Positions 37,840 to 62,679 of a stretch of 64,000 bases of DNA are shown one piece after another. Below the pieces are notes generated by a model. That model saw only the letters and a list, made by a program, of their open reading frames with translations. It was not told the DNA's origin and did not search any database. The DNA comes from Escherichia coli. Its GTDB lineage: Bacteria > Pseudomonadota > Gammaproteobacteria > Enterobacterales > Enterobacteriaceae. Within the stretch, counting starts at the first letter, position 1. Every line of letters starts with the position of its first letter. The translations under genes were made by a program, and so were the position numbers. The stretch lies in NCBI RefSeq assembly GCF_024223415.1, contig NZ_CP100500.1. One strand, written 5' to 3'.

Positions 37840-39483
37840 ATGGATATCTGGTCACAGGACTATGATCCCGTCGGAAATATCTGGCTGTCCAGCCTGACAG
37901 CATCGCTTCCCATTCTGTTTTTTTTCTTTGCCCTGATTAAGCTGAAGCTTAAAGGCCATGTTGCTGCCACATGGACTGTCATTATCGCGCTCATCGTGGC
38001 CCTTCTTTTTTATAAGATGCCTCTCACAGCCGCACTCGCTTCCGTGCTCTATGGTTTCTTCTATGGCCTGTGGCCCATTGCCTGGATAATTATTGCCGCA
38101 GTTTTTGTTTATAAAATTTCTGTAAAAACCGGACAGTTCGATATCATTCGCGCTTCAGTGCTGTCCGTTACGCCTGATCAGCGTATTCAGATGCTGATTG
38201 TGGGGTTTGCCTTTGGTGCCTTTCTCGAAGGGGCCGCCGGTTTTGGAGCACCTGTGGCCATAACAGCAGCACTGCTCGTGGTGCTTGGGTTCAGACCACT
38301 TTACGCGGCCGGGTTGTGTCTGATCGTCAATACAGCTCCCGTGGCCTTTGGTGCGATGGGGATCCCCATTCTCGTCGCAGGCCAGGTTACCGGGCTGGAC
38401 AGCTTTGAAATCGGTCAGATGGTTGGTCGTCAGTTACCCTTCCTGACCATTATTGTGTTGTTCTGGATCATGGCAATTATGGATGGCCTGCGTGGCATTA
38501 AGGAAACCTGGCCCGCCGTTCTGGTTGCCGGAGGTTCCTTCGCCATAGCCCAGTTTCTCAGTTCCAACTTTCTGGGCCCGGAGCTCCCGGACATCATATC
38601 ATCACTGGTGTCGCTGGTTTGTCTGACGCTTTTCCTGAAACGCTGGCAGCCTGTACATATTTTTCGCTTTGACAACACCCCGTACCAGAATACGGACTCA
38701 TCACCACTGAGCCGTTCACAGGTGATACGGGCATGGTCGCCATTTCTGTTTCTGACTGCCACGGTGACACTCTGGAGTCTTCCTCCCTTTAAAACACTGT
38801 TCGCACCGGGCGGTACACTGCATGACCTGGTGATTACTGTTCCTGTGCCGTATCTTGATAAACTCATTGCACGTATGCCTCCGGTAGTCAGCGAAGCCAC
38901 TGCTTATGCCGCGGTGTTTAAGTTTGACTGGTTCTCTGCCACCGGTACCGCCATCCTGTTTGCAGCATTGCTCTCTGTGATCTGGCTGAAGATGAAACCG
39001 TCAGATGCTGTCAGCACCTTTGGCAGTACACTGAAAGAACTTGCCCTGCCCGTCTATTCCATCGGCATGGTGCTGGCTTTCGCCTTTATCTCTAATTATT
39101 CGGGGCTTTCATCCACACTTGCCCTGGCTCTGGCACAGACAGGCAGCGCCTTTACGTTCTTCTCACCGTTTCTGGGCTGGCTGGGCGTATTTCTGACGGG
39201 ATCAGATACCTCATCCAATGCATTATTTGCATCACTCCAGGCAACGGCAGCTCATCAGATCGGGGTCTCCGATATTCTGATGGTTGCCGCCAACACCACA
39301 GGGGGAGTAACCGGCAAAATGATTTCTCCACAGTCCATTGCCATCGCCTGCGCAGCAACCGGACTTGTTGGCAAAGAATCAGAACTCTTTCGTTTTACTG
39401 TTAAACACAGCCTGATCTTCACCTGTATTGTGGGAGTCATCACCTCTCTCCAGGCATGGGTATTCACCTGGATGATCCCATGA
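37840..39483 (+). CDS. L-lactate permease (LldP/GlcA family paralogue)
   Basis: Start [39 protein letters not shown]...; LldP-like over full length; track ORF begins 66 nt upstream. Confidence 0.9.
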
Positions 39484-43395: not shown

Positions 43396-44391
43396 TCAGT
43401 GGCTGATTTTTTTCAGCTGTTCTTCACTCAGCCCCGTAATTTTCATGATTGTCTGGAAACCCATCCCTTCAGCCAGCATATTACGCGCGGTTTCCAGTTT
43501 GCCTTCCAGTTGTCCTTCGAGTCGACCTTCGGCACGGCCTTCCATTCTGCCTTCCATTCTGCCTTCCAGCTTACCACGCTCCATACCCTGCGCCATGCCC
43601 AGCGCAATGCCTTCCTCGCGTCCGCTCTGCTTCAGTTGTTCAGCCAGTGTCATTATGTTGCCCTCGTGCTGTGGCAGCCGCTCCGCCAGCGTCTGCAAAA
43701 ACCTTACCGTCACATGTTCACTGCCGTTCAGCAGATAGTGGAACAGAACCTGCGCCAGCTCTTCATTCAGCGAAGTCTGTATCAGCTGAACCAGCCTGTC
43801 CATCTGCAGCATGATGTCGCGGCTGCGGCTGTGTTTCATCAGCAGCGTCAGTGCCCCCATACGACGGTGCTGCATTATTTCATCGTCATCCAGTACCGTC
43901 ACGTCCACCAGGTGGAACGGTCTGGTGTAGATTTTAGCAGCAAGTTCCGGATTTCTGAAACACTCCAGCCAGTTCATGCTGTACGGGTACGGACTCCGCT
44001 CACCGTGGTAGAATAACAGCGGGATCACCAGCGGCAGCTCATGGTGCTGTTCAAAGTGACGCTGCATCGCCGCCACCGCATATCTGAGCATCCTGAACGC
44101 CATAAACGCGTTTTCCGTGCTCTGGTGTTCCGCGAGGCAATAAATATACCCCTCCTCACCGCTGACGGTCTTCATGCTGAACAGCGCATCGCACGCATAC
44201 TGTTTCAGATCCTGGTCCACAAAGGTACAGGGCTCCAGCCGCAGCGTTGACAGATCACACAGCTGCCGGTATTCCGCCGGAAGATGCAGTTCAACAAAAT
44301 CACGGGCCACCTCTGCGGAGGCCATAAACGCCCTGAAGGCAGCATCATGCGGCGTGGGGGTATTTTTCTCTTTCCTGCTGCTCACCGTCAT
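43396..44391 (-). CDS. Rpn-family recombination-promoting nuclease / putative transposase (YhgA-like)
   Basis: 331 aa; PD-(D/E)xK-like N-terminal region; C-terminal tandem GRMEG/GRAEG/GRLEG/GQLEG repeats. Confidence 0.75.
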   Translation of the reverse strand: MTVSSRKEKNTPTPHDAAFRAFMASAEVARDFVELHLPAEYRQLCDLSTLRLEPCTFVDQDLKQYACDALFSMKTVSGEEGYIYCLAEHQSTENAFMAFRMLRYAVAAMQRHFEQHHELPLVIPLLFYHGERSPYPYSMNWLECFRNPELAAKIYTRPFHLVDVTVLDDDEIMQHRRMGALTLLMKHSRSRDIMLQMDRLVQLIQTSLNEELAQVLFHYLLNGSEHVTVRFLQTLAERLPQHEGNIMTLAEQLKQSGREEGIALGMAQGMERGKLEGRMEGRMEGRAEGRLEGQLEGKLETARNMLAEGMGFQTIMKITGLSEEQLKKISH

Positions 44392-46724: not shown

Positions 46725-47167
46725 GGTTGAATCTCCTCCGTGACTCACAGACGTTACTTAAGGAAGAAGATGAGCAACAGGCTACACGTACGATAAAAGA
46801 CATTTGGGTCATGAATACACGATCTGGATGGACGACATAAAGGTGATGATCTGCTCAAACCAACCAGCGTTTATGATCGATGCGACAGACAGAAGGAATG
46901 AACTACTACAATAAATAAAATCTGTCGCTGTGTGGCAAGGAAGATTTTCTTCAGGAGTGCTGGCTTATTGGGATTTTTAACACAATTTAGAGTGAGTTCA
47001 ATCAGCCACAAATCTGGATTCCTATGTCCGGATTTTTACCACAATCCCCTTATTGATTTTTATTAATCATTCACAATCTGTGATCTAGCTCGATTGCGAT
47101 TTGTATTTGACTTAATATAATCACCATGATTGTATTAAATCAAATTATAACAACAGGCGTAAAAACC

Positions 47168-48121
47168 ATGAACATTAAAAAATCAATAGAACGAGTACCC
47201 GGCGGTATGATGGTTGTACCACTGGTGATTGGCGCCATTATCAATACCTTTTCACCACAAGTGCTGGAGATCGGCGGGTTCACCACCGCGTTGTTCAAAA
47301 ACGGCGCTGCTCCTCTGATTGGTGCCTTCCTGCTCTGTATGGGAGCAGGGATCAGCGTGAAAGCCGCACCTCGGGCGTTGTTTCAGGGGGGGGCAATAAC
47401 CCTGACCAAACTGCTTGTCGCCATTGCGATTGGCCTAGGTGTTGAGCATCTGTTCGGTCAGGAAGGTATCTTCGGATTGAGCGGCGTGGCAATCATTGCG
47501 GCAATGAGTAACTCAAACGGCGGACTTTACGCGGCGCTAGTGGGAGAGTTTGGCAACGAACGCGATGTCGGCGCTATTTCAATTCTATCTCTGAATGATG
47601 GACCGTTCTTTACAATGATCGCGCTGGGAGCTGCTGGTATGGCGAACATACCAATCATAGCGCTGGTCGCAGTGCTGATTCCGCTGGTGATAGGGATGCT
47701 CCTCGGTAACCTTGATCCCAACATGCGTGACTTCCTGACCAAAGGTGGACCACTATTGATCCCGTTCTTCGCGTTTGCGCTGGGTGCGGGGATCAACCTT
47801 GAAATGCTTCTGCAGGGTGGGCTGGCTGGGATTCTGCTTGGCGTACTGACCACCTTTATCGGCGGTTTCTTTAACATTCGCGCCGACCGTCTGGCTGGGG
47901 GAACCGGTATTGCCGGCGCGGCGGCTTCCAGCACAGCCGGAAATGCGGTAGCGACGCCGCTGGCGATTGCTCAGGCAGACCCTTCGCTGGCTGAAGTGGT
48001 TACCTCTGCCGCACCGCTGATTGCCGCATCGGTGATCACAACCGCAATTCTGACGCCAGTCCTAACCTCTCGGGTCGCCAAAAATCGGGCGCGTCAGATC
48101 TCTGAGGAGAAAAAAGTATGA
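47168..48121 (+). CDS. 2-keto-3-deoxygluconate permease (KdgT family)
   Basis: MNIKKSIERVPGGMMVVPLVIGAIINTF...; polytopic membrane protein. Confidence 0.8.
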   Translation: MNIKKSIERVPGGMMVVPLVIGAIINTFSPQVLEIGGFTTALFKNGAAPLIGAFLLCMGAGISVKAAPRALFQGGAITLTKLLVAIAIGLGVEHLFGQEGIFGLSGVAIIAAMSNSNGGLYAALVGEFGNERDVGAISILSLNDGPFFTMIALGAAGMANIPIIALVAVLIPLVIGMLLGNLDPNMRDFLTKGGPLLIPFFAFALGAGINLEMLLQGGLAGILLGVLTTFIGGFFNIRADRLAGGTGIAGAAASSTAGNAVATPLAIAQADPSLAEVVTSAAPLIAASVITTAILTPVLTSRVAKNRARQISEEKKV

Positions 48122-49389
48122 AGATGATCGTTATCGCCGACGACTTTACGGGTTCTAACGATACTGGCGTGCAGTTGGCGAAGAAAGGAGCTCGCACGGA
48201 AGTTTTGCTAACGCCGGAGCAAAAGCCTTCGCGTCGCACGGATGTACTGGTGCTCAACACTGAAAGTCGTGCGGTGCCGGCCGCACAGGCAGCGAAAGCG
48301 GTAACGCATGCTCTGGCTCCCTGGTGCAAAGGAGAGATGCTCCCGCTGGTATACAAGAAAATCGACTCCACATTTCGCGGCAACGTCGGCGCGGAAGTGA
48401 CGGCAGCGATGCGAGCCGCTAAACGGACTCTGGCAGTGATCGCTGCGGCGATCCCAGCTGCAGGACGCACAACCCGTAACGGATTATGCCTGGTCAACGG
48501 TACGCCTCTACTGGAAACCGAGTTTGCCAGCGATCCGAAAACGCCGGTTTTCTCCTCGCGCATTGCGGAACTGATCGCGCTACAAAGCGATATCCCGGTA
48601 CATGACGTGTCGCTTGATGACGTGCGACGCGGACAGCTCAGCGCCCTTCTTAAAGCTTTTGCAGCCCAGGGGGAATGCATGGTGGTAGTCGATGCGGTGG
48701 AAGATCACGACCTGTCTCTGATTACCCAGGCTATTTGTGAACAGGCTACATTTCCTCTACTGGTCGGTGCGGCAGGACTGGCGAATGCGCTACCGGTCAG
48801 AATGTTCATGCAGGAGAAGAAGGCTCTGCCAGTGCTAGTAGTTGCAGGATCGATGAGCGAAGCCACCCGGCGGCAGGTTGAAAAAGCGCTCACCCAGGCA
48901 CACGCCAACGTGGTGGACATTGATGTCTCACGACTGATTTCCTCGAAGGCCGAACAGGAAATAGCCTCTGTGGTGGAACAGGCCAGCGTGTTGCTCAGTC
49001 ACCAGAAACACACGATTCTTCGCACCAGCCGTAGTGCGGATGACCGACTGATGATCGATGCTCTGTGTACTGAAGCAGGCGTAGGCCGCCAACAGCTTGG
49101 CGAGATGCTCAGCCAATGTCTAGGGATCATTACACTGCGCATTATCGAACAGGCGCGTATTGGCGGCCTGTTCCTGACCGGAGGAGATATTGCCACTGCT
49201 GTTGCCAGTGCGCTTGGTGCTGAAGGCTATCGCATCCAGAACGAGGTCGCCCCATGCATTCCCTGCGGGATGTTTGTGAACAGCGAAATCGACGATCTTC
49301 CGGTGATCACGAAAGCTGGCGGATTCGGTTCAGACAGCACCCTTTGTGATGCACTTTATTTTATTGAGGAGATGTACAGTGGTAACTAA
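48118..49389 (+). CDS. four-carbon acid sugar kinase family protein (YgbK/OtnK-like)
   Basis: MKMIVIADDFTGSNDTGVQLAKKGARTEVLL N-terminus. Confidence 0.8.
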   Translation: MKMIVIADDFTGSNDTGVQLAKKGARTEVLLTPEQKPSRRTDVLVLNTESRAVPAAQAAKAVTHALAPWCKGEMLPLVYKKIDSTFRGNVGAEVTAAMRAAKRTLAVIAAAIPAAGRTTRNGLCLVNGTPLLETEFASDPKTPVFSSRIAELIALQSDIPVHDVSLDDVRRGQLSALLKAFAAQGECMVVVDAVEDHDLSLITQAICEQATFPLLVGAAGLANALPVRMFMQEKKALPVLVVAGSMSEATRRQVEKALTQAHANVVDIDVSRLISSKAEQEIASVVEQASVLLSHQKHTILRTSRSADDRLMIDALCTEAGVGRQQLGEMLSQCLGIITLRIIEQARIGGLFLTGGDIATAVASALGAEGYRIQNEVAPCIPCGMFVNSEIDDLPVITKAGGFGSDSTLCDALYFIEEMYSGN

Positions 49390-50362
49390 AACAATAGCGA
49401 TTACGATGGGCGATCCGGCAGGTATCGGTCCAGAAATAATTGTCAAGGCACTTTGTGAAAATGAACTTAGCGGCGCACCGCTGGTAGTGGTGGGATGCCT
49501 ACAGACCCTACAACGTTTGCAAACCAAAGGACTGGCAGAAGGAGTGACTTTTCGCGCAATTGACAATGTCACGCAGGCGCGATTTTCACAGGGCGTGATT
49601 CACGTAATCGATGAGCCGCTGGCACAGCCCCAAGCGCTGGAGCCAGGTAAAGTGCAGGCCGAGGCGGGAGATCTGGCCTACCGTTGCGTAAAACGTGCGA
49701 CGGAGTTGGCACTGAAAGGTGATGTACACGCCATCGCCACTGCGCCGCTGAATAAAGAAGCACTACATCAGGCGGGACATTATTATCCGGGACATACCGA
49801 ACTGCTGGCGACGTTGACCGGAAGCCGTGACTATGCGATGGTGCTTTACACCGACAAGCTGAAGGTGATTCACGTTTCGACCCATATTGCGTTACGCAAG
49901 TTTCTCGACACTCTCAACAGGCAACGCGTGGAGACTGTTATAGGCATCGCGGATCACTTCCTTAAGCGTATTGGCTTAGCCCAACCGCGCATCGCCGTAG
50001 CCGGGATCAATCCCCATGCAGGCGAAAACGGTCTGTTTGGCGATGAAGAAATTCGCATTGTATCGCCAGCCATTGAAAACATGAGGGCGAAAGGAACAGA
50101 CGTTTTCGGACCATGTCCACCGGATACCGTGTTTTTGCAGGCATACGAGGGTCATTATGACATGGTGGTGGCGATGTACCACGATCAGGGACATATTCCG
50201 CTCAAACTGCTTGGATTCTATGATGGCGTGAATATCACCGCCGGTCTGCCGTTTATTCGTACCTCTGCTGATCACGGGACTGCGTTTGATATTGCCTGGA
50301 CGGGCAAAGCAAAATCTGAGAGCATGGTCATATCGATTAAACTGGCAATGCAACTGGCATAA
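49379..50362 (+). CDS. PdxA-family NAD-dependent dehydrogenase (4-hydroxythreonine-4-phosphate dehydrogenase-like)
   Basis: KTIAITMGDPAGIGPEI...HTELLA...DHGTAFDIAWTGKA; GTG start with GAGGAG Shine-Dalgarno assumed. Confidence 0.8.
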   Translation: MVTKTIAITMGDPAGIGPEIIVKALCENELSGAPLVVVGCLQTLQRLQTKGLAEGVTFRAIDNVTQARFSQGVIHVIDEPLAQPQALEPGKVQAEAGDLAYRCVKRATELALKGDVHAIATAPLNKEALHQAGHYYPGHTELLATLTGSRDYAMVLYTDKLKVIHVSTHIALRKFLDTLNRQRVETVIGIADHFLKRIGLAQPRIAVAGINPHAGENGLFGDEEIRIVSPAIENMRAKGTDVFGPCPPDTVFLQAYEGHYDMVVAMYHDQGHIPLKLLGFYDGVNITAGLPFIRTSADHGTAFDIAWTGKAKSESMVISIKLAMQLA

Positions 50363-50371
50363 TTTCCTGTT

Positions 50372-51142
50372 ATGAAAGGACAACACCGTCTGGATAAAAT
50401 AGTGGCGTATTTGAAAAATCATACGCTGGCGACCGTGGAACAACTTGTAGATGTGGTAGAAGCATCGCCCGCGACGATCCGACGTGATCTGATCAAACTG
50501 AATAAACAGGGTGTGATCAGCCGCAGCCACGGAGGTGTTGCCCTGCGGCGTTTTGAACCCGCGCAACCCACAACCAATGAAAAGCAATTACGATCGCCTG
50601 CGGAAAAGCGGGCGATCGCGCGTTTTGCAGCCTCAATAGTACAGGCCGGCGACGCAGTGGTTTTGGACGCCGGCACCACCATGCTGGAGTTGGCTAAATG
50701 CCTGACTCATTTGCCACTCAGGGTGATCACGGTCGATCTGCATATCGCCCTGTTTTTGTCCGAATTTCCCCAGATTGAAGTCACCATTGTGGGTGGTCGT
50801 ATTGATGAAAGCAGTCAGTCCTGTATCGGCGACTTTGGTCGCAAAATGTTACGTAGCGTCTACCCTGATATCGCATTCATGAGCTGTAACACCTGGAGTA
50901 TGGAAAAAGGTGTCACAACTCCGACGGAGGACAAAGCAGGACTCAAGCAGGAGATTATCGCTAACGCCCAACGTAAGGTTCTACTGGCCGACAGCAGCAA
51001 ATATGGCGCGCATTCGCTGTTCAACGTAACGCCGCTGAGCAGTTTTACCGATGTTGTGACCGATGTGCATCTGCCACGCCCTGTCCAGGCAGAGCTGGAA
51101 GCCCACTCCATTGCCCTTACGCTAGTCCAGCCTGGATTTTAA
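50372..51142 (+). CDS. DeoR-family transcriptional regulator
   Basis: N-terminal helix-turn-helix ([34 protein letters not shown]) plus sugar-phosphate-binding domain. Confidence 0.85.
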
Positions 51143-51429
51143 AGGGACCGTTCACAGTTATCAGGACGGACGGCATGTTGCGCCAACAGTCTTACCTGTG
51201 AACTGTATAGTGAACGTCTTTATGCTTATGGCAGTAAATCCACCAGTTGCAAACATCCCCCGCTGACCGGGGGAAAGTATTCATGTACCTGTTGTTGATT
51301 TACTGATGTCCATATCGGACATTCAGCATGATACGCGTTGTCATCCGGAACACGACTCTCTGTCGTATAAATATACCCCCGGATGAACGCTGTTTCGGAT
51401 GTGCGTACCTGGGGGCCTCAGGTGACAGC

Positions 51430-52449
51430 TCAGACGGTGGTCATATCAATAACGATTCTGCCGTTGATTTTTCCTGCGCGCATGCGGCCGAATACAGAGT
51501 TGATATTTTCCAGTGGCTCCGTGGTGACCTCTGCATGAACCTTGTGCTGACCGGTAAAGAAGAGAGCTTCCTGCAAATCCTTACGGGTCCCTACAATAGA
51601 ACCCCTCACAGTTATACCATCAAGCACCATATCGAATATCGACAAATCAAATTTCCCCGGCGGCAGACCGTTCAGTACCATCGTTCCGCCACGACGCATC
51701 ATACCTGTGGCCTGAGAAAATGCGGCTGGTGACACTGCCGTGACCAGTACACCATGTGCACCACCAGTTTCTGCATGAATGCGCTGTACCGGATTTTCAC
51801 GCACGGCGTTCACCACAACAGAGGCTCCAAGTCTGCAGGCCAGCTCCAGTTTACTGTCATCCACATCAACAGCCGCAACATTCATCCCCATCGCGGCGGC
51901 ATACTGAACGGCCAGATGTCCCAGTCCTCCGACACCGGAAATCACCACCCATTCCCCCGGGCGGGCTTCCGTCATTTTCAGTCCTTTGTAAACAGTCACG
52001 CCGGCGCAAAGCACGGGGGCTATATGGTGAAAATCAACATTATCCGGAAGAAGTCCGACATAATTCGCATCCGCAAGACAGTATTCCGCAAACGTGCCAT
52101 TCACCGAATAACCAGCATTTTGTTGGGAATGACACAGGGTTTCCCAGCCCCCCAGGCAATGCTCACAGTAGCCGCATGCAGAATACAGCCAGGGAACCCC
52201 TACCCGATCGCCTTCCCTGATATGTTTTACGCCGGCACCCACGGCCACCACGTGACCTACCCCTTCATGTCCCGGAATAAACGGCGGACGTGGTTTGACT
52301 GGCCAGTCACCATCTGCAGCATGAAGATCGGTATGGCATACCCCCGTGGCTGCTATTCTGACCAGAATTTTTCCGGGTTCAATGGCCGGCACGGTAACTT
52401 CATCAATAACCAGCGGTTTTCCAAATTCTGTGACAATAGCGGCTTTCAT
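51430..52449 (-). CDS. zinc-dependent alcohol dehydrogenase (AdhP-like)
   Basis: [21 protein letters not shown]...GHEGVGHV...; zinc and GxGxxG motifs. Confidence 0.88.
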
Positions 52450-52494
52450 GGTTTTGAGTTGCATTTTTGATTCCTCTGTTAGCGAAAGACAAAA

Positions 52495-54015
52495 TCAGAA
52501 CAGACCAGCCGGTGATGTGTCATAACTGACCAGAATATTTTTAACCTGCTGATAGTGGCTGAGAGCCAGCTTATGTGTTTCCCTGCCAATACCAGAATTT
52601 TTATACCCTCCGAATGCGGCATGTGCCGGGTAATAATGGTAACAGTTTGTCCATATACGCCCGGCCTGGATCCCTTTTCCCATTCTCCATGCCCGGTTTA
52701 TATCTGTCGTCCACACACCCGCGCCAAGTCCGTATTCCGTATCGTTGGCGATACTGAGCGCCTCTTCTTCTGTCCTGAACGTGGTTATGCCAATGACAGG
52801 TCCGAAGATTTCCTCCCTGAAACATCGCATCTGATTATGGCCTTTGATCAGGGTCGGCTGAATGTAGAAGCCATTCTGTAAATGTCCCTCGTGGATGACA
52901 GGTGCACCACCGGTGAGTATTTCTCCGCCCTCATCCCTTGCTATGCGGATCCAGGAAAGGATCCTGTCATACTGTTCCCGGGAAGCCTGTGCACCTATCA
53001 TTGTGTCTGTATCAAACGGATCTCCACGGCGGATATTTTCGATTTTATGCAGAACCCGCTCCACAAAAGCCTGAAAGATCGTTTCCTGAACCAGGATACG
53101 TGAGGGACAGGTACAGACCTCCCCCTGATTAAAGAAGCCAAGTACAGCACCTTCAACCGCCTTTTCAAGGTAGCTGTCATCTCCGTTCATCACATCGTCA
53201 AAGAAAATATTGGGGGATTTACCGCCCAGTTCGACTGTACTGGGGATAATATTTTCAGCTGCGCAGGAGAGAATATGCCGCCCGACGGGCGTGGAGCCTG
53301 TGAATGCAATTTTATCGATACGACGGCTGCGGGCCAGAGCTTCACCAGCTTCCTGCCCGAAACCATGAACAACGTTAAGCACACCCGGCGGTAAAAGATC
53401 ACCGATTAATTCCAGCAGTACGCAAATACCCAGAGGGGTCTGTTCTGCGGGCTTCAGTACCACACAGTTTCCTGCCGCAAGTGCCGGTGCCAGTTTCCAG
53501 GCCGCCATCAGCAAAGGAAAATTCCATGGAATAATCTGACCGACCACTCCCACAGGTTCATAGATGTGCCATGCCATCATATCCCTGCCCACCTCTGCTG
53601 CACTGCCTTCCTGCGCCCGGAGACAGCCCGCAAAATAACGGAAGTGGTCAACTGCCAGTGGAATATCGGCCGCGAGTGTTTCGCGTACCGGCTTGCCGTT
53701 ATCCCAGGTTTCTGTCAGTGCCAGGATTTCTGTGTTCGCTTCAATACGATCGGCAATGGCAAGCAGTATATTCGCCCGCTCCGTGACCGGTGTTGCCCCC
53801 CATCGGGCTCTGGCCTCATGTGCCGCAGTGAGCGCGCTTTCAATATCCATCTCACCCGAACGTGGGAATTCAGCAATATTTTCTCCGGTAACAGGAGTGG
53901 TGCTGGTGAACCATCGCCCGCCGACAGGATCAACAAACTGACCGTTGATAAAGTTACCGTAGCGTTTTTTGAATGACACTTTTGAGCCGGGTAATCCCGG
54001 ATGTATGTATTTCAT
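52495..54015 (-). CDS. NAD-dependent aldehyde dehydrogenase (AldB/AcoD-like)
   Basis: 506 aa with catalytic ELGGKSP and GQ...C motifs. Confidence 0.88.
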   Translation of the reverse strand: MKYIHPGLPGSKVSFKKRYGNFINGQFVDPVGGRWFTSTTPVTGENIAEFPRSGEMDIESALTAAHEARARWGATPVTERANILLAIADRIEANTEILALTETWDNGKPVRETLAADIPLAVDHFRYFAGCLRAQEGSAAEVGRDMMAWHIYEPVGVVGQIIPWNFPLLMAAWKLAPALAAGNCVVLKPAEQTPLGICVLLELIGDLLPPGVLNVVHGFGQEAGEALARSRRIDKIAFTGSTPVGRHILSCAAENIIPSTVELGGKSPNIFFDDVMNGDDSYLEKAVEGAVLGFFNQGEVCTCPSRILVQETIFQAFVERVLHKIENIRRGDPFDTDTMIGAQASREQYDRILSWIRIARDEGGEILTGGAPVIHEGHLQNGFYIQPTLIKGHNQMRCFREEIFGPVIGITTFRTEEEALSIANDTEYGLGAGVWTTDINRAWRMGKGIQAGRIWTNCYHYYPAHAAFGGYKNSGIGRETHKLALSHYQQVKNILVSYDTSPAGLF

Positions 54016-54081
54016 GACATTCTCCCTGAGCGAAATTCAGTGTACGTTCATGCAGGAACAAAACTGTTGCAGATAACCTTA

Positions 54082-54097
54082 AGCAACACCCATGCCA
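54082..54097 (-). promoter_or_regulatory. sigma-54 (-24/-12) promoter upstream of the aldB-adhP operon
   Basis: Minus strand reads TGGCATGGGTGTTGCT (GG and GC spaced as in TGGCAC-N5-TTGCA), about 65 nt upstream of the aldB start. Confidence 0.7.
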
Positions 54098-54256
54098 CCA
54101 AGTTGTTACACACAGTTAACAACAACAAAAACAGCCTGTTAGCCCAAAAAACAGACAACCGAAAAAGAATCACCACAGGAAAATGTGAAGCAAATAAAAC
54201 ATTTTCGATACACAAATGATACAATCATGCAACACAACTGTTGCAAGGATTGAATT

Positions 54257-56017
54257 ATGTTACGTAAGAGATCTGCAACTGAGTATCAGAAAGAAAAAGC
54301 CACGCTTCCGGTACTCCTGAGTGCATCATGGCAACGATGTACCGGCTATCATCTCGAAAGAGACAGTGCGCCCTCAGTATGTGTTGAGCATGACCAGTTA
54401 CGGGATCTCCGGTCGCACAACGGCTGGTCAGATATCCTTAAACAACAGTTCCCTGAATCAGGCTCTGATTTTTTCAGTAAATCACTGGTACTGGTTATTG
54501 CTGATGCATCAGGCGTGATCCTTGACACCTGCGGTAACAGGAAATTTCTGAATAAAGCCGAAGGTTTTTTCCTTTCCCCCGGTCATATCTGGACCGAACA
54601 ACACTACGGCACAAATGCCATAGGTACAGCGCTGGCTGTACAGCAGGCATGTGAAGTGAGGGGGAGTGAACACTGGCTCAACAGAAATTCAGGACTCTGT
54701 TGTTCGGCATACCCGCTATTTTCACCTGAAGGTTATCTTGCCGGTATCCTGGATTTATCGTCACCGGCAGATTTACCATTCCGTGATGCACCGGTGATTA
54801 TCAGGCGGTTTGTTCAGCAAACCGAATATCTCTGGACAACAAAACGACTCAATGCAGAGAGATATCTGTTGCATCTCCGCCGGGAAAACAACGCAGACAT
54901 CAGTGACAGTAGTGAATTTTTACTGGTCATTGAAGGTGATGTGATTGTTGGTGCCAACAGGCTCGCTGTGAATGAATTTGGCCTTCTTCCACCTTATGAT
55001 TCCGTCACTCTGGATACTCTCTTTACCGGGGGTAACAGACAGTCTGATTTTCTGGAATCGTGCAGCGGACAACGTTATCTGCAGCGACGCACCCGCCCCC
55101 ACAGAGCTGCCGTGAATCTGTCACCCCGCCTCCGTTTTCCATCGCGGCGTGAAGCGGACAACGAAAAAAAGGAAAAAGCACAGCAGTTAATCAACCACGG
55201 AATATCGGTCTGTATTACAGGAGAAACCGGAACGGGGAAAGAATATCTGGCGCGGGAGCTTCACCGTAACAGTTGCCGGAAAAACGGCAACTTTGTTGCA
55301 ATTAACTGTGCTGCCCTGCCGGAACACCTGACAGAATCAGAGCTTTTCGGATACGCTCCGGGAGCATTTACCGGCGCGAATTCCAGAGGTTATCCCGGGA
55401 AAATCAGGGAAGCCAGTGGCGGGATCCTGTATCTTGATGAAATCGGCGATATGCCGGCAACACTTCAGACACGGTTATTACGTGTACTGCAGGACAAAAA
55501 AGTGATTCCTCTGGGTTCAAACACGCCTGTGGACGTTGACTTCGTACTGATATCAGCCACGCACCGTGATCTGGATAAGATGTGTGCAGAAGGGACTTTT
55601 CGGGATGATCTGTTATACCGAATACGGGAATTTCACCTGCATCTTCAGCCACTTCGGGAAAGAAGCGACCTGGGTAAACTGATAGTTAAACTCTGGGAAG
55701 AATCTGAACAGGAGATGAAAAAAACCGTCATGCTGGGCAGTGAAATTATTGAAGATTTAAAACGACATTCATGGCCGGGGAATGTACGTCAGTTGCTGAA
55801 TGTGCTCAGAGTTCTGATGGCGCTGGCACGACCTGGAGGAAGAATCACTCCAGGTGATCTCAGCGTAGTGTCTGAAGATATTTGTCATATCCATAATACC
55901 GTAAAGATAGTGACCGAAAGAAAAATAGTGGATGAGGCCGGAGGAAACATCAGCAGAGCGGCAAAAATGCTGGGTATTTCCCGAAGCACATTATACAGAC
56001 GACTGAAAAGTCTGTAA
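54257..56017 (+). CDS. sigma-54-dependent transcriptional activator (AcoR-like)
   Basis: AAA+ Walker A GETGTGKE, GAFTGA motif (YAPGAFTGA), C-terminal helix-turn-helix. Confidence 0.88.
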   Translation: MLRKRSATEYQKEKATLPVLLSASWQRCTGYHLERDSAPSVCVEHDQLRDLRSHNGWSDILKQQFPESGSDFFSKSLVLVIADASGVILDTCGNRKFLNKAEGFFLSPGHIWTEQHYGTNAIGTALAVQQACEVRGSEHWLNRNSGLCCSAYPLFSPEGYLAGILDLSSPADLPFRDAPVIIRRFVQQTEYLWTTKRLNAERYLLHLRRENNADISDSSEFLLVIEGDVIVGANRLAVNEFGLLPPYDSVTLDTLFTGGNRQSDFLESCSGQRYLQRRTRPHRAAVNLSPRLRFPSRREADNEKKEKAQQLINHGISVCITGETGTGKEYLARELHRNSCRKNGNFVAINCAALPEHLTESELFGYAPGAFTGANSRGYPGKIREASGGILYLDEIGDMPATLQTRLLRVLQDKKVIPLGSNTPVDVDFVLISATHRDLDKMCAEGTFRDDLLYRIREFHLHLQPLRERSDLGKLIVKLWEESEQEMKKTVMLGSEIIEDLKRHSWPGNVRQLLNVLRVLMALARPGGRITPGDLSVVSEDICHIHNTVKIVTERKIVDEAGGNISRAAKMLGISRSTLYRRLKSL

Positions 56018-56337
56018 GAACAACGTGCTGCCGGATACGTTATTTGCGGGAAATTCCTGTTCTGTAAAATATATCTCAGGTTGTTAAAACCCTGTCATTC
56101 TTCCATGTGAACAGTATGAGAAACATCACACGGGTATATTCACGGCCGGCACAACCACAGACATAAATGATATCCTGCGCATCATTTCCTGATGCTCTGA
56201 TACTGAGTTAACCACTTATTTACATCTGACGATAAATTGTTTATTCATTCTTCAGGGTAAATAAAGCCATAAGGAGTGTGATATTCACGATACGCTGAAA
56301 ATCGGTGAACTGAAAAATGGCAGTTACAGGGGGAAAT

Positions 56338-57822
56338 ATGAGTGATTTAATTAATTTTATTAATGGCATAATATGGAGCCCGGCACTGGTCTGGCTTTGT
56401 CTTGGAACAGGCCTCTGGTTTTCTGTCAGGGGACGCTTCCTGCAGCTCCGGCATATTAAAGAAATGCGCCGTCTGATATTCCGGAGTAAACAGAATGATG
56501 CGGGCGTTTCCTCTTTTCAGGCACTCACGATGACACTGGCCGGACGGGTCGGAACCGGTAATATTGCCGGTGTTGCCACGGCTATCACCTTTGGTGGTCC
56601 CGGTGCATTATTCTGGATGTGGGTGGTGGCATTTCTCGGCGCAAGCTCAGCCTTTGTCGAATCCACACTGGGGCAAATTTATAAGGAAAAAATTAACGGA
56701 GAATACCGGGGCGGACCCGCTTTTTACATAGAAAAAGGGCTTGGGTTACGATGGTACGCATGGCTGTTTGCTGTGGTGACGGTGCTTTCCTGTGGGCTGT
56801 TATTACCCGGTGTCCAGGCGAATTCGATAGGAAGCAGCCTGAACCTTGCATTCGGGATTAGCCCCAATGTGACGGCAGCATTTATCGCCCTCCTTCTTGG
56901 ATTCATCATCTTTGGTGGTGTAAAACGGATTGCTGTATTTACCAGTACTGTCGTGCCTTTCATGGCTCTCGGCTATATCATTGTCGCGTGTGTCATTGTT
57001 GCACTTCATATTGAAAAACTTCCCGGCGTGCTCCTCCTTGTCTGGCGCTCTGCTTTTGGACTGGATGCAGGTTTTGGTGCCATTGTCGGGCTTGCCATTT
57101 CATGGGGGGTCAAACGTGGTGTCTATTCCAATGAAGCCGCTCAGGGAACCGGACCTCACGCCTCTTCCGCTGCGGCAGTGACACATCCGGTTAAACAGGG
57201 ACTGGTGCAGGCCTTTTCTGTATATATCGACACGCTTTTTGTCTGTTCAGCTACGGGATTTATGCTTCTTGTTACCGGTCTGTATAATGTTCAGGGCCCC
57301 GGTGATGTTGCCTTATATACCGGTATCGCCGGTGTGGCAGCCGGGCCCGGCTATGTGCAGACAGCCATGGAAAGTATGATGCCGGGGTTTGGTAATTATT
57401 TTGTCGCAATCGCACTGTTCTTTTTCGCATTCACCACGATTGTTGCTTACTATTATATCGCAGAAACTAACATTGCCTGGATTTGCCGTAAAACAGCACG
57501 CCCCTGGCTTATGATTGTACTGAAGATTATGCTGATGGTTTCTGCGGTATACGGTACGGTCAAAACCGCAGATATGGCATGGGGACTGGGTGATATAGGG
57601 GTTGGTATGATGGCATGGCTTAATATCATCGCTATATTGCTTATGGGAGGGACTGCGTTTAATTGCCTCAGGGACTACGAAAAACAGATGTCACAGAATG
57701 CTGACCCGGTATTTGATCCCGAACGCCTCAGTCTGCAAAATGCTGATTACTGGACAGAACACCGTGATGAAGTTAAAAAATTGAGTGAGCCCGGGCCCAC
57801 ATTCCGGACAACGTCGTCGTAA
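56338..57822 (+). CDS. alanine/glycine:cation symporter (AGCS family)
   Basis: MSDLINFINGIIWSPALVWLCLGTGLWFS...; polytopic. Confidence 0.85.
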   Translation: MSDLINFINGIIWSPALVWLCLGTGLWFSVRGRFLQLRHIKEMRRLIFRSKQNDAGVSSFQALTMTLAGRVGTGNIAGVATAITFGGPGALFWMWVVAFLGASSAFVESTLGQIYKEKINGEYRGGPAFYIEKGLGLRWYAWLFAVVTVLSCGLLLPGVQANSIGSSLNLAFGISPNVTAAFIALLLGFIIFGGVKRIAVFTSTVVPFMALGYIIVACVIVALHIEKLPGVLLLVWRSAFGLDAGFGAIVGLAISWGVKRGVYSNEAAQGTGPHASSAAAVTHPVKQGLVQAFSVYIDTLFVCSATGFMLLVTGLYNVQGPGDVALYTGIAGVAAGPGYVQTAMESMMPGFGNYFVAIALFFFAFTTIVAYYYIAETNIAWICRKTARPWLMIVLKIMLMVSAVYGTVKTADMAWGLGDIGVGMMAWLNIIAILLMGGTAFNCLRDYEKQMSQNADPVFDPERLSLQNADYWTEHRDEVKKLSEPGPTFRTTSS

Positions 57823-59603: not shown

Positions 59604-61955
59604 TCAGAATAACCCCCCTTCACCATCAGCCACAATCCTGTATCCCATCGCCTTATAACCCCGCTGGCGTTTATCCCACATTCTGAGCAGCACAGGATAC
59701 GCTTTATCCACAAAATCAATGATCCTGACATCGCTTTTACCGGTATACTGTCTGTGCAGACGCCCTGCATACTGCTGTAACGTCCCTTTCCATGACACCG
59801 GCATCGCCAGAATCAGCGTATCCAGCGGTGGGTGGTCAAATCCCTCACCAATAAGTTTACCGGTTGACAACAGAATGCGGGGAGAATCCTGAGGAAGCGC
59901 ATTTAACTCAGAAATCAGCATTGTACGCTTTTTTTTCGATAACCGGCCATGAAGCACAAAGGGTGACAGGTTCAGTGAATGCATTACTGATGCTATATCA
60001 TCCAGATGCTCTTTTCGTTCAGTCAGTACCAGAACTTTACGTCCCTGCGCGAATGCCTTCATGGCTTCTTCAGCTATCGCCACAGTCCTGTCATGATCAA
60101 GCGCAATTTCTCTGAAAATATCCTGGATCCCCGCATCCGATGGTAAATGTCCGGATGTAAAACGGAAACGGAGCTGCACTTCCAGATTATGCGGACTTTC
60201 CTTCGGGCTGGCCGCTGTGTGACGAAGGGCACCACAGTACATAAAAATGATGGGATGCAGACCATCCCGTCGGACAGGCGTTGCCGTCAGTCCCAAAAGA
60301 TATCTGGCATTCGTTTCCTTCAGAACAGCAGAAAATGAAAACGCTCCAGCATGATGGCACTCATCAACTATGACTTGCCCGTAATTCCTGACCACAGGTG
60401 CAACTTTGCCATGCCTGAACAGAGACTGCACAACAGCAATATCAATATTGCCAGAGGGGTTATGTTTGCCCCCTCCGATAATACCAATACCGTCACTGGT
60501 CTGCAGAAATACCCCAAGCCGCTCCTGCCATTGCTTTAATAACTCAGTCCGGTGTACCAGTACAAGTGTATTAACTCTCCGTCGTGCAATCACAGCCGCG
60601 GCGGTAACCGTCTTACCAAAAGCCGTTGGCGCACAAAGTACACCAGAATCATAACGGAGCAATACCGAAACAGCCTCTTCCTGATCCGCTCTGAGGTTTC
60701 CCGTGAACACAGCATGACATTCTGTACCTGCAAATCGTTCATCGATGATTTCTGCAGCAATATTGTTGTCACTGAGGAAGGATAATGCGCTGTCCAGACA
60801 TCCACGGGGTAACGCAATGTGTTGCGGATAATTTTCCGCACAACCTGTAACCCGGGGTTTATTCCAGACAGACATTCTCATGGCCTGAGCCTTATAAAAC
60901 ACAGGATTAGGAAACGCAGCCAGTCGAATAAGCCGGTTGGCCAGCGGCTGAGGTAATTGCGCTTTTTCGAAATAGATCTGGTTTGCCAGCGTGATTCTCA
61001 GCGGCTCAGCAACAGAAACCGTCAGTTTGTTTTCTGATGATGTTTTCCACGGCGTGCTCAGGTCTTCGTCGGTAAAGTTCACATCCAGTGGATGAATACT
61101 TCCTGTAGCCCGTAATATTGTCGGTTCTATATCCTGCACATTCATCGGGATCACCGATGCCAGGAATGCCCACTGATCAGGATAAGGCTGAAAATTCATA
61201 TCAACAAAAACACTGCCTCCCGATTCACGCGGTCTTTTTTGCAGAGGTAACGCGATGAGATTGCCGAATCCCCCTTTTGGCATGGTATCCTGATTAGGAA
61301 ATAATCGGTCATAAGAACTCAACCGCAGTTGCCGGGAACGGCTACACGTATGGCTGATAACGGCTGTCCCCAGTCGGCGTGCATCACGGGCCGAAACCCG
61401 GGAAGCAAAAAATATCCAGACATGCGCCCCCTGACGTGAGCGGGATATTTCCAGCGCTGCGGGTATCCCCAGCTCATCACAGGATCGCATGAATGCGGAT
61501 GCATCCTTCTGCCATTCAGCATCATCAAAATCAACAGCCAGAAAATAACAGGAATCGTCTTCCAGCAGCGGATATACCCCGACTGTATGGTAGCCTGCGA
61601 GATGACGGTAAATGACAGGATCGGATACAGGTAGCAACTGACGGTGTGCGCAGTCACCGCATTTTATCCCGGGCTTACCGCAGATTCCCGGCTTCCATTC
61701 GTTAGCACAGGCCGGCGAATACCCTGATTTACCACTGACCTGACTTTCCCAGCGAAGGGCCCATACATCATCACGCCCACGAAACAACCGACGAAATAAT
61801 GAAACCTTCTGTTCAGCAGATAATGCGGAAACATGATGTACAGAACGCTGCGGTTTACGTCGCCATTCAATCCCGTGAGCTTCAAGTAATGAGGCCAGAC
61901 GGGCATTTTCTGCCCTCAGTGCAGCTAATTCGTCGTTATCAGATTGACACACCAT
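59604..61955 (-). CDS. fusion protein: N-terminal archaeo-eukaryotic primase (primase-polymerase)-like domain plus C-terminal SF2 DExH helicase
   Basis: N-terminal coiled coil, Cys cluster CGKPGIKCGDCAH, AEP-like motifs FLAVDFDD and GAHVWIFF; helicase motifs APTAFGKT, VIVDECHH, GLTATP, QYAGRLHRQ. Confidence 0.8.
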   Translation of the reverse strand: MVCQSDNDELAALRAENARLASLLEAHGIEWRRKPQRSVHHVSALSAEQKVSLFRRLFRGRDDVWALRWESQVSGKSGYSPACANEWKPGICGKPGIKCGDCAHRQLLPVSDPVIYRHLAGYHTVGVYPLLEDDSCYFLAVDFDDAEWQKDASAFMRSCDELGIPAALEISRSRQGAHVWIFFASRVSARDARRLGTAVISHTCSRSRQLRLSSYDRLFPNQDTMPKGGFGNLIALPLQKRPRESGGSVFVDMNFQPYPDQWAFLASVIPMNVQDIEPTILRATGSIHPLDVNFTDEDLSTPWKTSSENKLTVSVAEPLRITLANQIYFEKAQLPQPLANRLIRLAAFPNPVFYKAQAMRMSVWNKPRVTGCAENYPQHIALPRGCLDSALSFLSDNNIAAEIIDERFAGTECHAVFTGNLRADQEEAVSVLLRYDSGVLCAPTAFGKTVTAAAVIARRRVNTLVLVHRTELLKQWQERLGVFLQTSDGIGIIGGGKHNPSGNIDIAVVQSLFRHGKVAPVVRNYGQVIVDECHHAGAFSFSAVLKETNARYLLGLTATPVRRDGLHPIIFMYCGALRHTAASPKESPHNLEVQLRFRFTSGHLPSDAGIQDIFREIALDHDRTVAIAEEAMKAFAQGRKVLVLTERKEHLDDIASVMHSLNLSPFVLHGRLSKKKRTMLISELNALPQDSPRILLSTGKLIGEGFDHPPLDTLILAMPVSWKGTLQQYAGRLHRQYTGKSDVRIIDFVDKAYPVLLRMWDKRQRGYKAMGYRIVADGEGGLF

Positions 61956-62115: not shown

Positions 62116-62679
62116 TCAGTTGTGTCGCGGTCGGCCGCGGTTACTTTTTTCAGGTAGTCTGCTACGCATCAGAATAATACCGTGTTCTTTCTGATCCTGT
62201 TTAGCCAGGTAGCTAAGGGCGTAACGTAAGTCATCTACCGCAGATTTATTACTATAGCGAATTACGTGATCAATACGCACCGGGTATTTATCTTTAGCCC
62301 GGCACAGGTGAAAATAACCATCCCCTTCCGTGATCCGCCTCCAGATATCTCCCAGCAGCCTGGATATCCGGTAAGATTTCTTGTGCCGTTGTCCATCCAG
62401 ATAGCCGATAAAATGAATATGAAGTCCCTTGTTTTGTGTATATTCCATAACCCAGTAATATCCTGCCAGAATCGTTTGGGTTTCGCTAAGTAAGCGCTGC
62501 ATCTCAATACACATACTGTGCTTACAGGAATGACCGAAACTGGGCGTGTCTTTCCTGTAGGCAAAATCAATTCTGAAAGGTAACAGTTTAGAAAAACGTT
62601 GAAACATACCTTCCATGTGTTTATTCACGTCTTTCAGAATCGTGAAATTCATTTCGTAATTGGGATTGGCATTGTACAT
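62116..62679 (-). CDS. YagK/YfjJ-family (inovirus Gp2-like, putative HUH-type) protein
   Basis: 187 aa with LLPFRIDFAYRKD and GLHIHFIGYLDG motifs. Confidence 0.65.
   Translation of the reverse strand: MYNANPNYEMNFTILKDVNKHMEGMFQRFSKLLPFRIDFAYRKDTPSFGHSCKHSMCIEMQRLLSETQTILAGYYWVMEYTQNKGLHIHFIGYLDGQRHKKSYRISRLLGDIWRRITEGDGYFHLCRAKDKYPVRIDHVIRYSNKSAVDDLRYALSYLAKQDQKEHGIILMRSRLPEKSNRGRPRHN

Follow-up and report, generated by a model that had tools for sequence, protein, structure and literature searches.

The locus described here lies within a 64,000-nt stretch of Escherichia coli DNA (the window, to which all coordinates refer) and comprises three intact open reading frames, 51430-52464 and 52495-54015 on the minus strand and 54257-56017 on the plus strand, located 3' of a tRNA-Ser(GGA) gene (5493-5580) within a mosaic island. 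The first-pass annotation had described this module as island cargo, which agrees with its setting and with its presence in 1 of 5,426 complete E. coli genomes. The genes and repeats reported below, along with the promoter element and the motifs of the encoded proteins, were read directly from the DNA.

The dehydrogenase operon and the divergent activator

The first gene of the operon (52495-54015) encodes an ExaC-type NAD+ acetaldehyde dehydrogenase (ALDH) of 506 amino acids, which matches Pfam Aldedh (E = 3e-154), scores 871.3 bits against the NCBIfam ExaC model, below its cut-off of 900, and shares 79-81% identity with Kosakonia proteins and 73% with P. aeruginosa ExaC. It was initially named aldB, but is not necessarily an orthologue of AldB of E. 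coli K-12. The second gene, of the adhP type (51430-52464), starts 30 nt past the ALDH stop codon and encodes a Zn-dependent alcohol dehydrogenase (ADH) of 344 amino acids with Pfam domains ADH_N and ADH_zinc_N, a score of 371.5 bits against the NCBIfam AdhP equivalog (above the cut-off of 344) and 84% identity to its positional counterpart in Kosakonia. ALDH and ADH form a two-gene operon. A GC-rich hairpin (CCCCCG-N5-CGGGGG, 51257-51273, minus strand) about 160 nt 3' of adhP is a weak candidate terminator, missed by the terminator scan because its T-tail is poor; it falls just inside the region in common with E. coli NCTC9699, whose left boundary is at 51220. The copies of the module in the window and in NCTC9699 differ at 23 coding positions, 14 synonymous and 9 amino acid changing, and this mostly synonymous divergence suggests purifying selection. 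In NCTC9699, IS1 cuts the gene adjoining the module.

The divergent gene (54257-56017) encodes a bacterial enhancer-binding protein (bEBP) of 586 amino acids, composed of a GAF-PAS sensor (aa 1 to about 290), an AAA+ sigma-54 interaction domain (aa 302-461), a lid (aa 469-536) and a Fis-type helix-turn-helix (HTH; aa 560-584), the corresponding Pfam/NCBIfam matches being Sigma54_activat, AAA_lid_14 and HTH_8. The GAFTGA motif noted in the first-pass annotation is intact (aa 369-374; 55361-55378), as are Walker A (GETGTGKE), Walker B, the R-finger region and WPGNVRQL, and the recognition helix ISRSTLYRRL is the same as in the Kosakonia homologue. PDB sequence matches span aa 273-586 only; the AlphaFold model of aa 1-290 (pLDDT 83.9) aligns with E. 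coli DhaR(N) (Foldseek E = 1e-14, TM 0.57-0.59), and MimR_N (PF26965) is recorded for a 99%-identical protein, so that the modeled sensor matches a DhaR(N)-like GAF-PAS fold of the MimR_N subfamily. The earlier designation AcoR-like stands for this sensor-domain subfamily and does not extend beyond it. Outside E. coli, the closest relative shares only about 50% identity with the activator, whose sensor region is only 35-44% identical to any homologue and which is off consensus at 23 of the 194 positions conserved in at least 95% of the 116 closest homologues. The residue preceding the GTNAIGTAL motif is Y, compared to R in all 116 closest relatives, and is variable in the wider family. Such divergence could mean that the ligand and activity of the protein differ from those of its homologues, or that it is impaired.

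The intergenic region and its conservation

A sigma-54-type -24/-12 element, TGGCATGGGTGTTGCT, is located on the minus strand at 54082-54097 (GG at 54095-54096, GC at 54083-54084) and fits TGGCAC-N5-TTGCW at 10 of 11 specified positions, with one mismatch. A distance of 67 nt separates the C of its -12 GC and the ALDH start codon, in keeping with the value of about 65 nt first proposed, and transcription is predicted to start near 54071. By itself, the match is not significant at the scale of the window, in which two matches with up to one mismatch were found against 3.7 expected from shuffled sequence; within the 241 nt between the divergent genes, about 0.007 chance matches are expected on the correct strand. 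The element is proven by its conservation across homologous loci. Divergent pairs of an ExaC-like ALDH and a bEBP were found at 58 distinct loci in alpha-, beta- and gammaproteobacteria, and a -24/-12 element (at least 9/11) is present on the ALDH strand at 48 of these, 29-94 nt from the ATG, compared to 3 of 58 on the opposite strand. P. aeruginosa exaC, a gene without an adjoining bEBP, served as negative control and scored 7/11 at best. The E. coli element, at 10/11, is a better match than those of most enteric homologues (9/11). Among hexamers in the 58 intergenic regions, over-representation is strongest for TGGCAC and for the half-site sequences TGTCGC/GCGACA/TGTTGC. Thirty-one of the 58 regions contain the palindrome TGTYGC-N5-GCRACA, which was counted 34 times in all (0.14 expected), with a strong preference for the N5 spacing. 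By this comparison, promoter and enhancer half-site are conserved along with the gene pair. The gene 3' of the ALDH gene in this family encodes DUF779, a Zn-ADH or an Fe-ADH, and is never eutB.

It could be argued that the -24/-12 element is fortuitous, the operon being transcribed by sigma-70 or sigma-S RNA polymerase like the chromosomal aldB and adhP of E. coli and the activator controlling something else. The window-wide counts, no higher than in shuffled sequence, and the second match (33959-33974), which is inside a permease open reading frame and probably due to chance, would fit this explanation. We nevertheless regard it as highly improbable, since the 48 retained elements lie only on the correct strand, the ALDH/bEBP pairing and the enhancer motif are conserved, a simple promoter scan found no sigma-70-like promoter in the intergenic region, the window motif scan found no other -24/-12 candidate close to the activator gene, and knockout of acoR in Phytobacter diazotrophicus lowers aldB mRNA (PMC12648084).

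Further upstream, a candidate enhancer (UAS; 54184-54245, minus strand, about -113 to -174 from the predicted start) consists of a cluster of TGTWKCR heptamers with 11-nt phasing: TGCAACA (54245-54239), TGTTGCA (54234-54228), TGTATCA (54223-54217), TGTATCG (54212-54206), TGTTTTA (54201-54195) and GCTTCACA (54191-54184). The 241-nt region holds five matches to TGTWKCR, a pattern defined post hoc from data already seen, against about 0.3 expected from its window-wide density. The cluster lines up with GTGTTGCATnnnTGTAnCAT, the conserved site 1 found in the enteric homologues, and its half-site is the family consensus TGTYGC, with perfect half-sites at the matching position. A scan of 54100-54250 for inverted repeats had been suggested, and one is indeed present (TGCAACA-N4-TGTTGCA, 54228-54245); the canonical family palindrome, however, is absent from the E. 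coli copy, the best match to TGTYGC-N5-GCRACA having 4 mismatches compared to 2 or fewer in every enteric homologue. The E. coli half-sites instead show tail-to-tail and direct-repeat arrangements, and TGTTTTATTTGCTTCACA is found where the homologues have site 2.

Three additional features were found around these sites. A perfect 7-nt inverted repeat (GTTGTTA-N8-TAACAAC, 54102-54123) directly upstream of the -24 element fills the interval that holds an IHF-like site in 8 of 12 enteric homologues; no IHF match with up to one mismatch was found in the window. An imperfect direct copy of UAS segment 54220-54245 (D1 15-mer with 93% identity and adjacent D2 12-mer with 83%, 174-177 nt apart) occupies 54043-54071, the first 30 nt or so of the predicted ALDH transcript, and is not seen in the 5' leaders of the homologues. 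A possible sigma-70 extended -10 for the activator gene (TGATACAAT, 54217-54225, plus strand), read by eye and uncalled by the simple promoter scan, overlaps a UAS heptamer, which suggests that the activator may regulate its own gene.

The absence of the palindrome, the altered site 2, the lack of an IHF match and the 23 deviating positions of the activator, together with the rarity of the module and the IS1 in the adjoining gene of NCTC9699, raise the question of whether the locus is a decaying or silent relic, with intact genes and no effective activation in E. coli. We consider this improbable, given that all three reading frames are full length with every catalytic and sigma-54-contact motif intact, the recognition helix is identical to that of Kosakonia, four perfect or near-perfect UAS half-sites are in helical phase, the -24/-12 element surpasses those of most enteric homologues, and most differences between the E. 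coli copies are synonymous.

Proposed regulation and inducing signal

We think it likely that the locus is a self-contained enhancer-dependent module for the oxidation of alcohols and aldehydes, controlled by sigma-54 and the divergent activator, which probably senses acetaldehyde. The enhancer-dependent control put forward in the first-pass annotation is supported by the comparison and by studied relatives (PMC5821096, PMC12648084, PMC4676750), and it is from experimentally studied homologues that we infer the dependence on RpoN and the activator as well as the identity of the inducer. The proposed sequence of events is as follows: (i) sigma-54 RNA polymerase would form a closed complex on the element at 54082-54097, and the divergent activator would bind the TGTTGCA-type sites about 110-175 bp upstream (54184-54245); (ii) a small carbonyl compound, with acetaldehyde or some other short-chain aldehyde as the most probable candidate, would be sensed by the GAF-PAS domain, upon which the AAA+ ring, using ATP and its GAFTGA loops, would open the promoter; (iii) a single mRNA starting near 54071 would give the ExaC-type ALDH and the AdhP-type ADH, which together would convert ethanol or similar alcohols to the aldehyde and then the acid, so that the inducer would be made from alcohol by ADH and removed by ALDH; and (iv) the activator probably autoregulates, because its sites overlap the 5' end of its own gene.

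The choice of acetaldehyde as the probable inducer follows from EatR only. Control could still depend on sigma-54 and the activator but respond to a different signal: the alcohol itself, a ketone of the kind associated with AcoR, AcxR and MimR (such as acetoin or acetone), or an aldehyde that is aromatic or has a longer chain. Placement of the sensor in the MimR_N/AcoR subfamily, whose named members respond to acetoin or acetone, its low identity to any homologue and the Y before GTNAIGTAL all point in that direction; moreover, a related AldB from Aromatoleum also oxidizes propionaldehyde and benzaldehyde (PMC12031824). We judge a signal of this kind possible, if rather unlikely, as the sole regulated neighbors encode an acetaldehyde-type ALDH and an ethanol/propanol-type ADH, the window contains no aco, acx or mim genes, and EatR, the one inducer-tested bEBP paired with an ExaC-like gene, senses acetaldehyde. 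The acetoin catabolism proposed earlier is without support, no aco genes being nearby.

Comparison with known systems

Acetaldehyde-sensing regulation, as favored here, has its model in P. aeruginosa EatR (PA4021), whose gene is divergent from the ExaC-like PA4022 (PA4022-eat-eutBC), with a -24/-12 promoter whose activity requires both RpoN and the bEBP; EatR senses acetaldehyde, which is the inducer, and the system works in E. coli (PMC5821096). Both loci thus pair a bEBP gene with that of an ExaC-like NAD+ acetaldehyde dehydrogenase preceded by a -24/-12 element. In the E. coli module, however, an AdhP-type ADH gene comes after that of ALDH, in place of the ethanolamine permease and ammonia-lyase of the EatR operon, and the aldehyde would therefore come from alcohols as opposed to ethanolamine. 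In Ralstonia solanacearum, where growth on ethanol needs rpoN1, Rsc3129 (an AcoR homologue) with Rsc3128 (ExaC) is a predicted RpoN target (PMC4676750), again an AcoR-type bEBP and an ExaC-type ALDH behind a predicted RpoN promoter. Betaproteobacterial loci usually have DUF779 after ALDH, in contrast to the Zn-ADH of the E. coli module. In R. eutropha, the product of acoD is reportedly an acetaldehyde dehydrogenase II of 506 aa, and the gene has a promoter of the sigma-54 type, as described by Priefert et al. in 1992; AcoR of that organism also controls the acetoin genes acoXABC, which the E. coli module does not contain.

E. coli DhaR shares the modeled N-terminal GAF-PAS fold and the AAA+ and HTH architecture, and the NCBIfam DhaR model matches aa 308-585 of the activator, although the two sensors are only 14-15% identical. 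DhaR takes its signal from the DhaK/DhaL proteins and works at a sigma-70 promoter; unlike DhaR, the activator described here retains GAFTGA and adjoins a -24/-12 promoter.

In P. diazotrophicus, the AcoR HTH domain binds a probe that contains GCGACACAGTT, the counterpart of the E. coli UAS sequence, and includes ACGACACAGTTCGCGAA (PMC12648084). AcoR-aldB units of this type also occur in Kosakonia, Enterobacter, Serratia, Pantoea and Erwinia, and share with the E. coli module the gene order (ADH in most, ALDH, divergent bEBP), a similar -24/-12 distance and GCRACA/TGTYGC sites adjoining the activator gene, with identities of about 50% for the activator, 79-81% for ALDH and 83-85% for ADH. The E. 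coli module differs in lacking the canonical palindrome and an IHF-like site, in carrying an extra copy of UAS-like sequence downstream of the promoter, and in its place on a tRNA-Ser island as opposed to the core chromosome. The functionally closest studied systems are the acetaldehyde-responsive EatR and Phytobacter AcoR-aldB. A sigma-54 promoter coupled to its own divergent activator is a widespread and already studied design in Proteobacteria, and the E. coli copy is unusual in its enhancer without the canonical palindrome, its activator with only about 50% identity to any other known protein and its rarity.

The operon and its predicted sigma-54 promoter

Three intact open reading frames make up the module: on the minus strand, an aldehyde dehydrogenase (ALDH) of 506 aa (52495-54015; Pfam Aldedh) and, starting 30 nt after it, a Zn-dependent alcohol dehydrogenase (ADH) of 344 aa (51430-52464), and on the plus strand, across an intergenic region of 241 nt, an activator of 586 aa (54257-56017; Pfam Sigma54_activat, AAA_lid_14 and HTH_8). 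The operon with a divergent activator described in the first-pass annotation is thus borne out by the reading frames and by the Pfam and NCBIfam matches. The ALDH aligned over its full length with the ExaC model NF050026 (NCBIfam) at 871.3 bits, against a curated equivalog cut-off of 900; it is 73% identical to ExaC of P. aeruginosa, and many of its close homologues carry ExaC as their source name. The ADH exceeded the AdhP equivalog cut-off (NCBIfam NF006940; 371.5 bits versus 344).

A -24/-12 element, TGGCATGGGTGTTGCT (54082-54097, minus strand), differs from TGGCAC-N5-TTGCW by one mismatch (10 of 11 specified positions), has its GG and GC exactly 10 nt apart, and is oriented toward the ALDH gene, with 67 nt between the C of the GC and the ALDH ATG, where about 65 nt had been estimated. 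The bare pattern was not significant in the window (2 matches versus 3.7 expected from shuffles), and since this count does not rise above chance, we relied on comparison with other genomes. The second match with at most one mismatch, TGGCGCTCTGATTGCA (33959-33974, plus strand), lies inside an open reading frame of the Trp/Tyr-permease family (33534-34865) and is probably due to chance.

One genome per species, from 100,044 species, was scanned with conserved sensor-domain motifs, which, together with look-ups of close homologues, yielded 87 loci. The divergent pair of an ExaC-like ALDH (59-81% identical) and an activator was found at 58 distinct loci in gamma-, beta-, and alphaproteobacteria. 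On the ALDH strand, 48 of the intergenic regions at the 58 loci carried a -24/-12 match of at least 9/11, at distances of 29-94 nt to the ATG; on the opposite strand only 3 did. TGGCAC was the most overrepresented hexamer in the whole set. The exaC gene of P. aeruginosa (PA1984, in the exaABC-pqq locus), which has no adjacent activator and served as a negative control, gave a best -24/-12 score of 7/11. It is this comparison with other genomes that provides the proof of the predicted -24/-12 element. Promoter and terminator scans called no sigma-70-like promoter and no terminator, either in the intergenic region of the window or downstream of adhP, and no Rfam family was matched in 51000-56500.

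The gene after the ALDH varies among the homologous loci, being a DUF779 gene in 21 of 46, a Zn-dependent ADH in 10, and an Fe-dependent ADH in 3; a eut family was matched in no case. In most beta- and alphaproteobacterial units (among the compared loci L019 to L082; e.g., L019, positions 2676-3170, and L027, positions 2674-3099) the ExaC-like ALDH is followed by a small DUF779 protein, a conserved partner under the same sigma-54 promoter.

The activator and its candidate enhancer

The central domain of the activator was assigned to Sigma54_activat (PF00158; E = 1.4e-60) with all motifs intact: Walker A (GETGTGKE), the GAFTGA motif reported in the first reading (located here at aa 369-374), Walker B (ILYLDEIG), the R-finger region (FRDDLLYRI), and sensor II (WPGNVRQL). 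A Fis-type helix-turn-helix (HTH; PF02954) occupies aa 560-584, with candidate binding sites at 54184-54245, and its recognition helix, ISRSTLYRRL, is the same in the Kosakonia homologue. For the N terminus, the local Pfam scan gave no family at E <= 0.001, and several other observations describe it: (i) MimR_N (PF26965) is recorded for this part of a database protein 99% identical to the activator; (ii) GTNAIGTALA, at aa 118-127, is a motif of the GAF-PAS sensor of the AcoR/DhaR/MimR subgroup; (iii) the AlphaFold model of aa 1-290 (pLDDT 83.9) has the GAF-PAS sensor of E. coli DhaR as its top structural match (Foldseek E = 1e-14, TM about 0.58). Solved structures related by sequence cover only the AAA+/HTH part.

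The activator had been called AcoR-like and its pathway acetoin-type. The subfamily assignment stands (MimR_N, GAF-PAS), and the pathway does not: acetoin dehydrogenase genes, acoABC(L) or acoXABC, neither adjoin the activator nor occur anywhere in the window, and its neighbors are the ALDH/ADH genes, a DeoR-linked sugar-acid cluster, and an alanine symporter gene. The activator is not AcoR in the strict sense of a regulator of acetoin catabolism, and since acetoin genes are absent, AcoR-like names a protein subfamily rather than a pathway.

After TGGCAC, the next enriched hexamers in the 58 regions were TGTCGC/GCGACA, GTGTCG, and TGTTGC/GCAACA, which combine into a 17-bp palindrome, TGTYGC-N5-GCRACA (consensus TGTCGCA-N3-TGCGACA), with a strongly preferred N5 spacing. 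With 0.14 instances expected, 34 were counted, spread over 31 of the 58 regions, and the distance upstream of the -24 element is usually 100-200 nt. The palindrome includes CGACAC, which is part of ACGACACAGTTCGCGAA, the proposed binding sequence of Phytobacter AcoR. The enhancer class of ExaC-linked MimR_N activators is defined in the present analysis as TGTYGC-N5-GCRACA.

The window lacks the canonical 17-mer, with 4 mismatches in its best match, whereas a match with at most 2 is present in every enteric homologue. The window carries instead a series of half-sites on the minus strand, set at exact 11-nt steps from 54245 to 54195 (TGCAACA, TGTTGCA, TGTATCA, TGTATCG, and TGTTTTA) and followed by GCTTCACA; perfect half-sites are present but stand tail to tail (N4) and as 11-nt direct repeats. 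The scan for inverted repeats upstream of the ALDH gene proposed at the outset returned the perfect tail-to-tail repeat TGCAACA-N4-TGTTGCA and a second perfect repeat, GTTGTTA-N8-TAACAAC (54102-54123), just upstream of the -24 element. In alignments, the segment GTGTTGCATGATTGTATCAT corresponds to site 1 of the enteric homologues, and the counterpart of their palindromic site 2 is the degenerate TGTTTTATTTGCTTCACA. An IHF-like site lies between enhancer and promoter in 8 of 12 enteric homologues; the window has no IHF consensus with at most one mismatch, and the 54102-54123 repeat sits where the enteric homologues have their AT-rich IHF-like site. A possible extended -10 for the activator gene, TGATACAAT (54217-54225, plus strand), was read by eye; it overlaps an enhancer heptamer and could, if used, subject the activator to autoregulation.

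An imperfect direct copy of the enhancer segment 54220-54245, 26-29 nt long, occupies 54043-54071, where the predicted ALDH transcript begins, 174-177 nt from that segment; it consists of a 15-mer matching at 93% and an adjacent 12-mer at 83%, and nothing resembling it was seen in the leaders of the homologues. A CACCTGT word considered as a conserved 5'-leader element was rejected, being confined to the Kosakonia/Enterobacter group.

These features allow a reading in which the E. coli copy is a rewired variant of the ExaC/activator unit, with a diverged activator, rearranged half-sites that form no palindrome and lack an IHF site, and a downstream enhancer-like copy. The activator is about 50% identical to anything known, and its sensor is changed at otherwise invariant positions. 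Of 194 positions at which at least 95% of 116 close homologues agree, the activator is off consensus at 23. The most striking change against these 116 homologues, R117Y, was discarded as a sign of altered sensor function, because the residue at position 117 varies across the wider family. With a second enhancer-like copy at +1 to +30, the sigma-54 promoter would be flanked by activator-binding sites, and a rewired unit would imply either a new ligand specificity or another control logic, such as repression or looping from the downstream site. We regard this reading as improbable. We prefer to describe the module as a divergent new member, acquired horizontally, of a unit that is already known and widespread and is composed of an ExaC-type ALDH, an activator of the MimR_N/AcoR type, and a sigma-54 promoter.

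The island and the origin of the module

The window is DNA of E. coli, in which cydDC is directly followed by tRNA-Ser(GGA) (5493-5580) and then by an extensive mosaic island with DUF4942, an Ag43-type autotransporter, IS66, and a GTPase. Of this stretch, the first ~36 kb (5486-41743) is shared by 11 complete E. coli genomes, with 99.9-100% identity, and an IS21/Mu-like transposase gene (41734-43269) marks the end of the shared part. This commoner part holds further metabolic cargo, namely, an FMN-dependent alpha-hydroxyacid dehydrogenase (35425-36591) and an L-lactate permease (37774-39483), and an Rpn/YhgA-like (Transposase_31) recombination-promoting nuclease gene (43396-44391, minus strand) lies between the IS21-like element and the module segment. 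At the far end of the window, 59604-61955 (minus strand) encodes a 783-aa protein with a TOTE conflict-system archaeo-eukaryotic primase domain and a ResIII/DEAD helicase; regions of other E. coli genomes similar to this gene and to 62116-62679 (minus strand) are annotated as YfjI and inovirus-Gp2/YagK-type genes, and the two together look like a defense or mobile-element module.

The module segment (51220-56481) is present in 1 of 5,426 complete genomes, that of NCTC9699, at 99.3% identity; the flanks there differ from those of the window, and the alanine symporter gene downstream is interrupted by an IS1. The arrangement of the window also occurs in a few draft assemblies. A comparison of the two E. 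coli copies shows 23 coding differences, 9 of them amino acid changing, which is consistent with purifying selection, and two intergenic ones, at 54099 and 54113, outside the -24/-12 element and the heptamers. No closer donor was found: activator identity falls from 99% within the E. coli cluster to 50-51% in its best relatives outside E. coli (Kosakonia, Enterobacter, and Yokenella), and the best match of its N-terminal part among representatives of 100,044 species is 44%. ALDH identity falls from 100% to 79-81%, the best relatives of the ADH stand at 83-85%, and plasmids gave only distant ALDH matches, from Pseudoalteromonas.

Beside the module, 47126-51142 encodes a KdgT-family permease, a four-carbon acid-sugar kinase (SBD_N/NBD_C), a PdxA-family dehydrogenase, and a DeoR regulator, and resembles a catabolic cluster for acid sugars of the threonate/erythronate type; it travels with the module in draft assemblies of E. 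coli (L002 to L004) and is absent beside it in NCTC9699. On the other side, an AgcS sodium:alanine symporter gene (56317-57822) follows the activator gene in the same orientation; its first ~165 nt (to 56481) are still covered by the NCTC9699 homology, which ends at the IS1 insertion. Membership of the symporter in the unit was rejected, as there is no -24/-12 element upstream of the AgcS gene and a different gene occupies the place in Kosakonia and in a genome labelled Salmonella.

Proposed function and known systems

The two enzymes would form a two-step route from alcohol through aldehyde to acid, and transcription of the ALDH-ADH operon would be triggered by aldehyde and dependent on the activator and sigma-54, with the ADH making the inducer from alcohol and the ALDH consuming it. 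This proposal is drawn from the enzyme route and from the EatR, Phytobacter, and R. solanacearum systems. Overall, the first-pass observation is confirmed, and its interpretation is supported except for the acetoin part. With the module, a few E. coli strains would gain one enhancer-binding protein beyond the standard set of the species and an aldehyde-inducible route from ethanol/acetaldehyde to acetate, horizontally acquired on the tRNA-Ser island. The relevance is modest, concerning strain-level metabolism (such as ethanol/acetaldehyde handling in gut or fermenting environments) and annotation, and no new principle is involved. A more general by-product is the combination of a sigma-54 promoter and a TGTYGC-N5-GCRACA enhancer common to pairs of ExaC-type ALDH and MimR_N-type activator in alpha-, beta-, and gammaproteobacteria; found at 31 of 58 loci, the palindrome defines the AcoR-type site more broadly than ACGACACAGTTCGCGAA does.

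In Phytobacter diazotrophicus, aldB mRNA is reduced when acoR is knocked out, the HTH domain of AcoR binds ACGACACAGTTCGCGAA, its proposed site, in an electrophoretic mobility shift assay, and this site was placed ~24 nt downstream of the aldB start site derived from RNA-seq (PMC12648084). At the P. massiliensis locus (L009), the corresponding GCGACACAGTTCC lies ~125 nt upstream of the -24/-12 element, adjoining acoR, so the published aldB start site of Phytobacter may be other than the sigma-54 start. In R. solanacearum, the AcoR homologue Rsc3129 and ExaC form a pair with a predicted RpoN promoter, and growth on ethanol requires rpoN1 (PMC4676750). A related pair in Aromatoleum, AldB/AdhB, has been assigned to ethanol and 1-propanol degradation (PMC12031824). 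In P. aeruginosa, the gene for EatR diverges from that for the ExaC-like PA4022; EatR depends on RpoN and on a -24/-12 promoter, takes acetaldehyde and not ethanolamine as its signal, and functions in E. coli (PMC5821096). The E. coli module resembles this EatR-type unit in that its activator is also divergent from an ExaC-like ALDH gene with a -24/-12 promoter, but it differs in what follows: PA4022 is succeeded by eat-eutBC (ethanolamine permease and ammonia-lyase), whereas the ALDH of the window is succeeded by an AdhP-type ADH.
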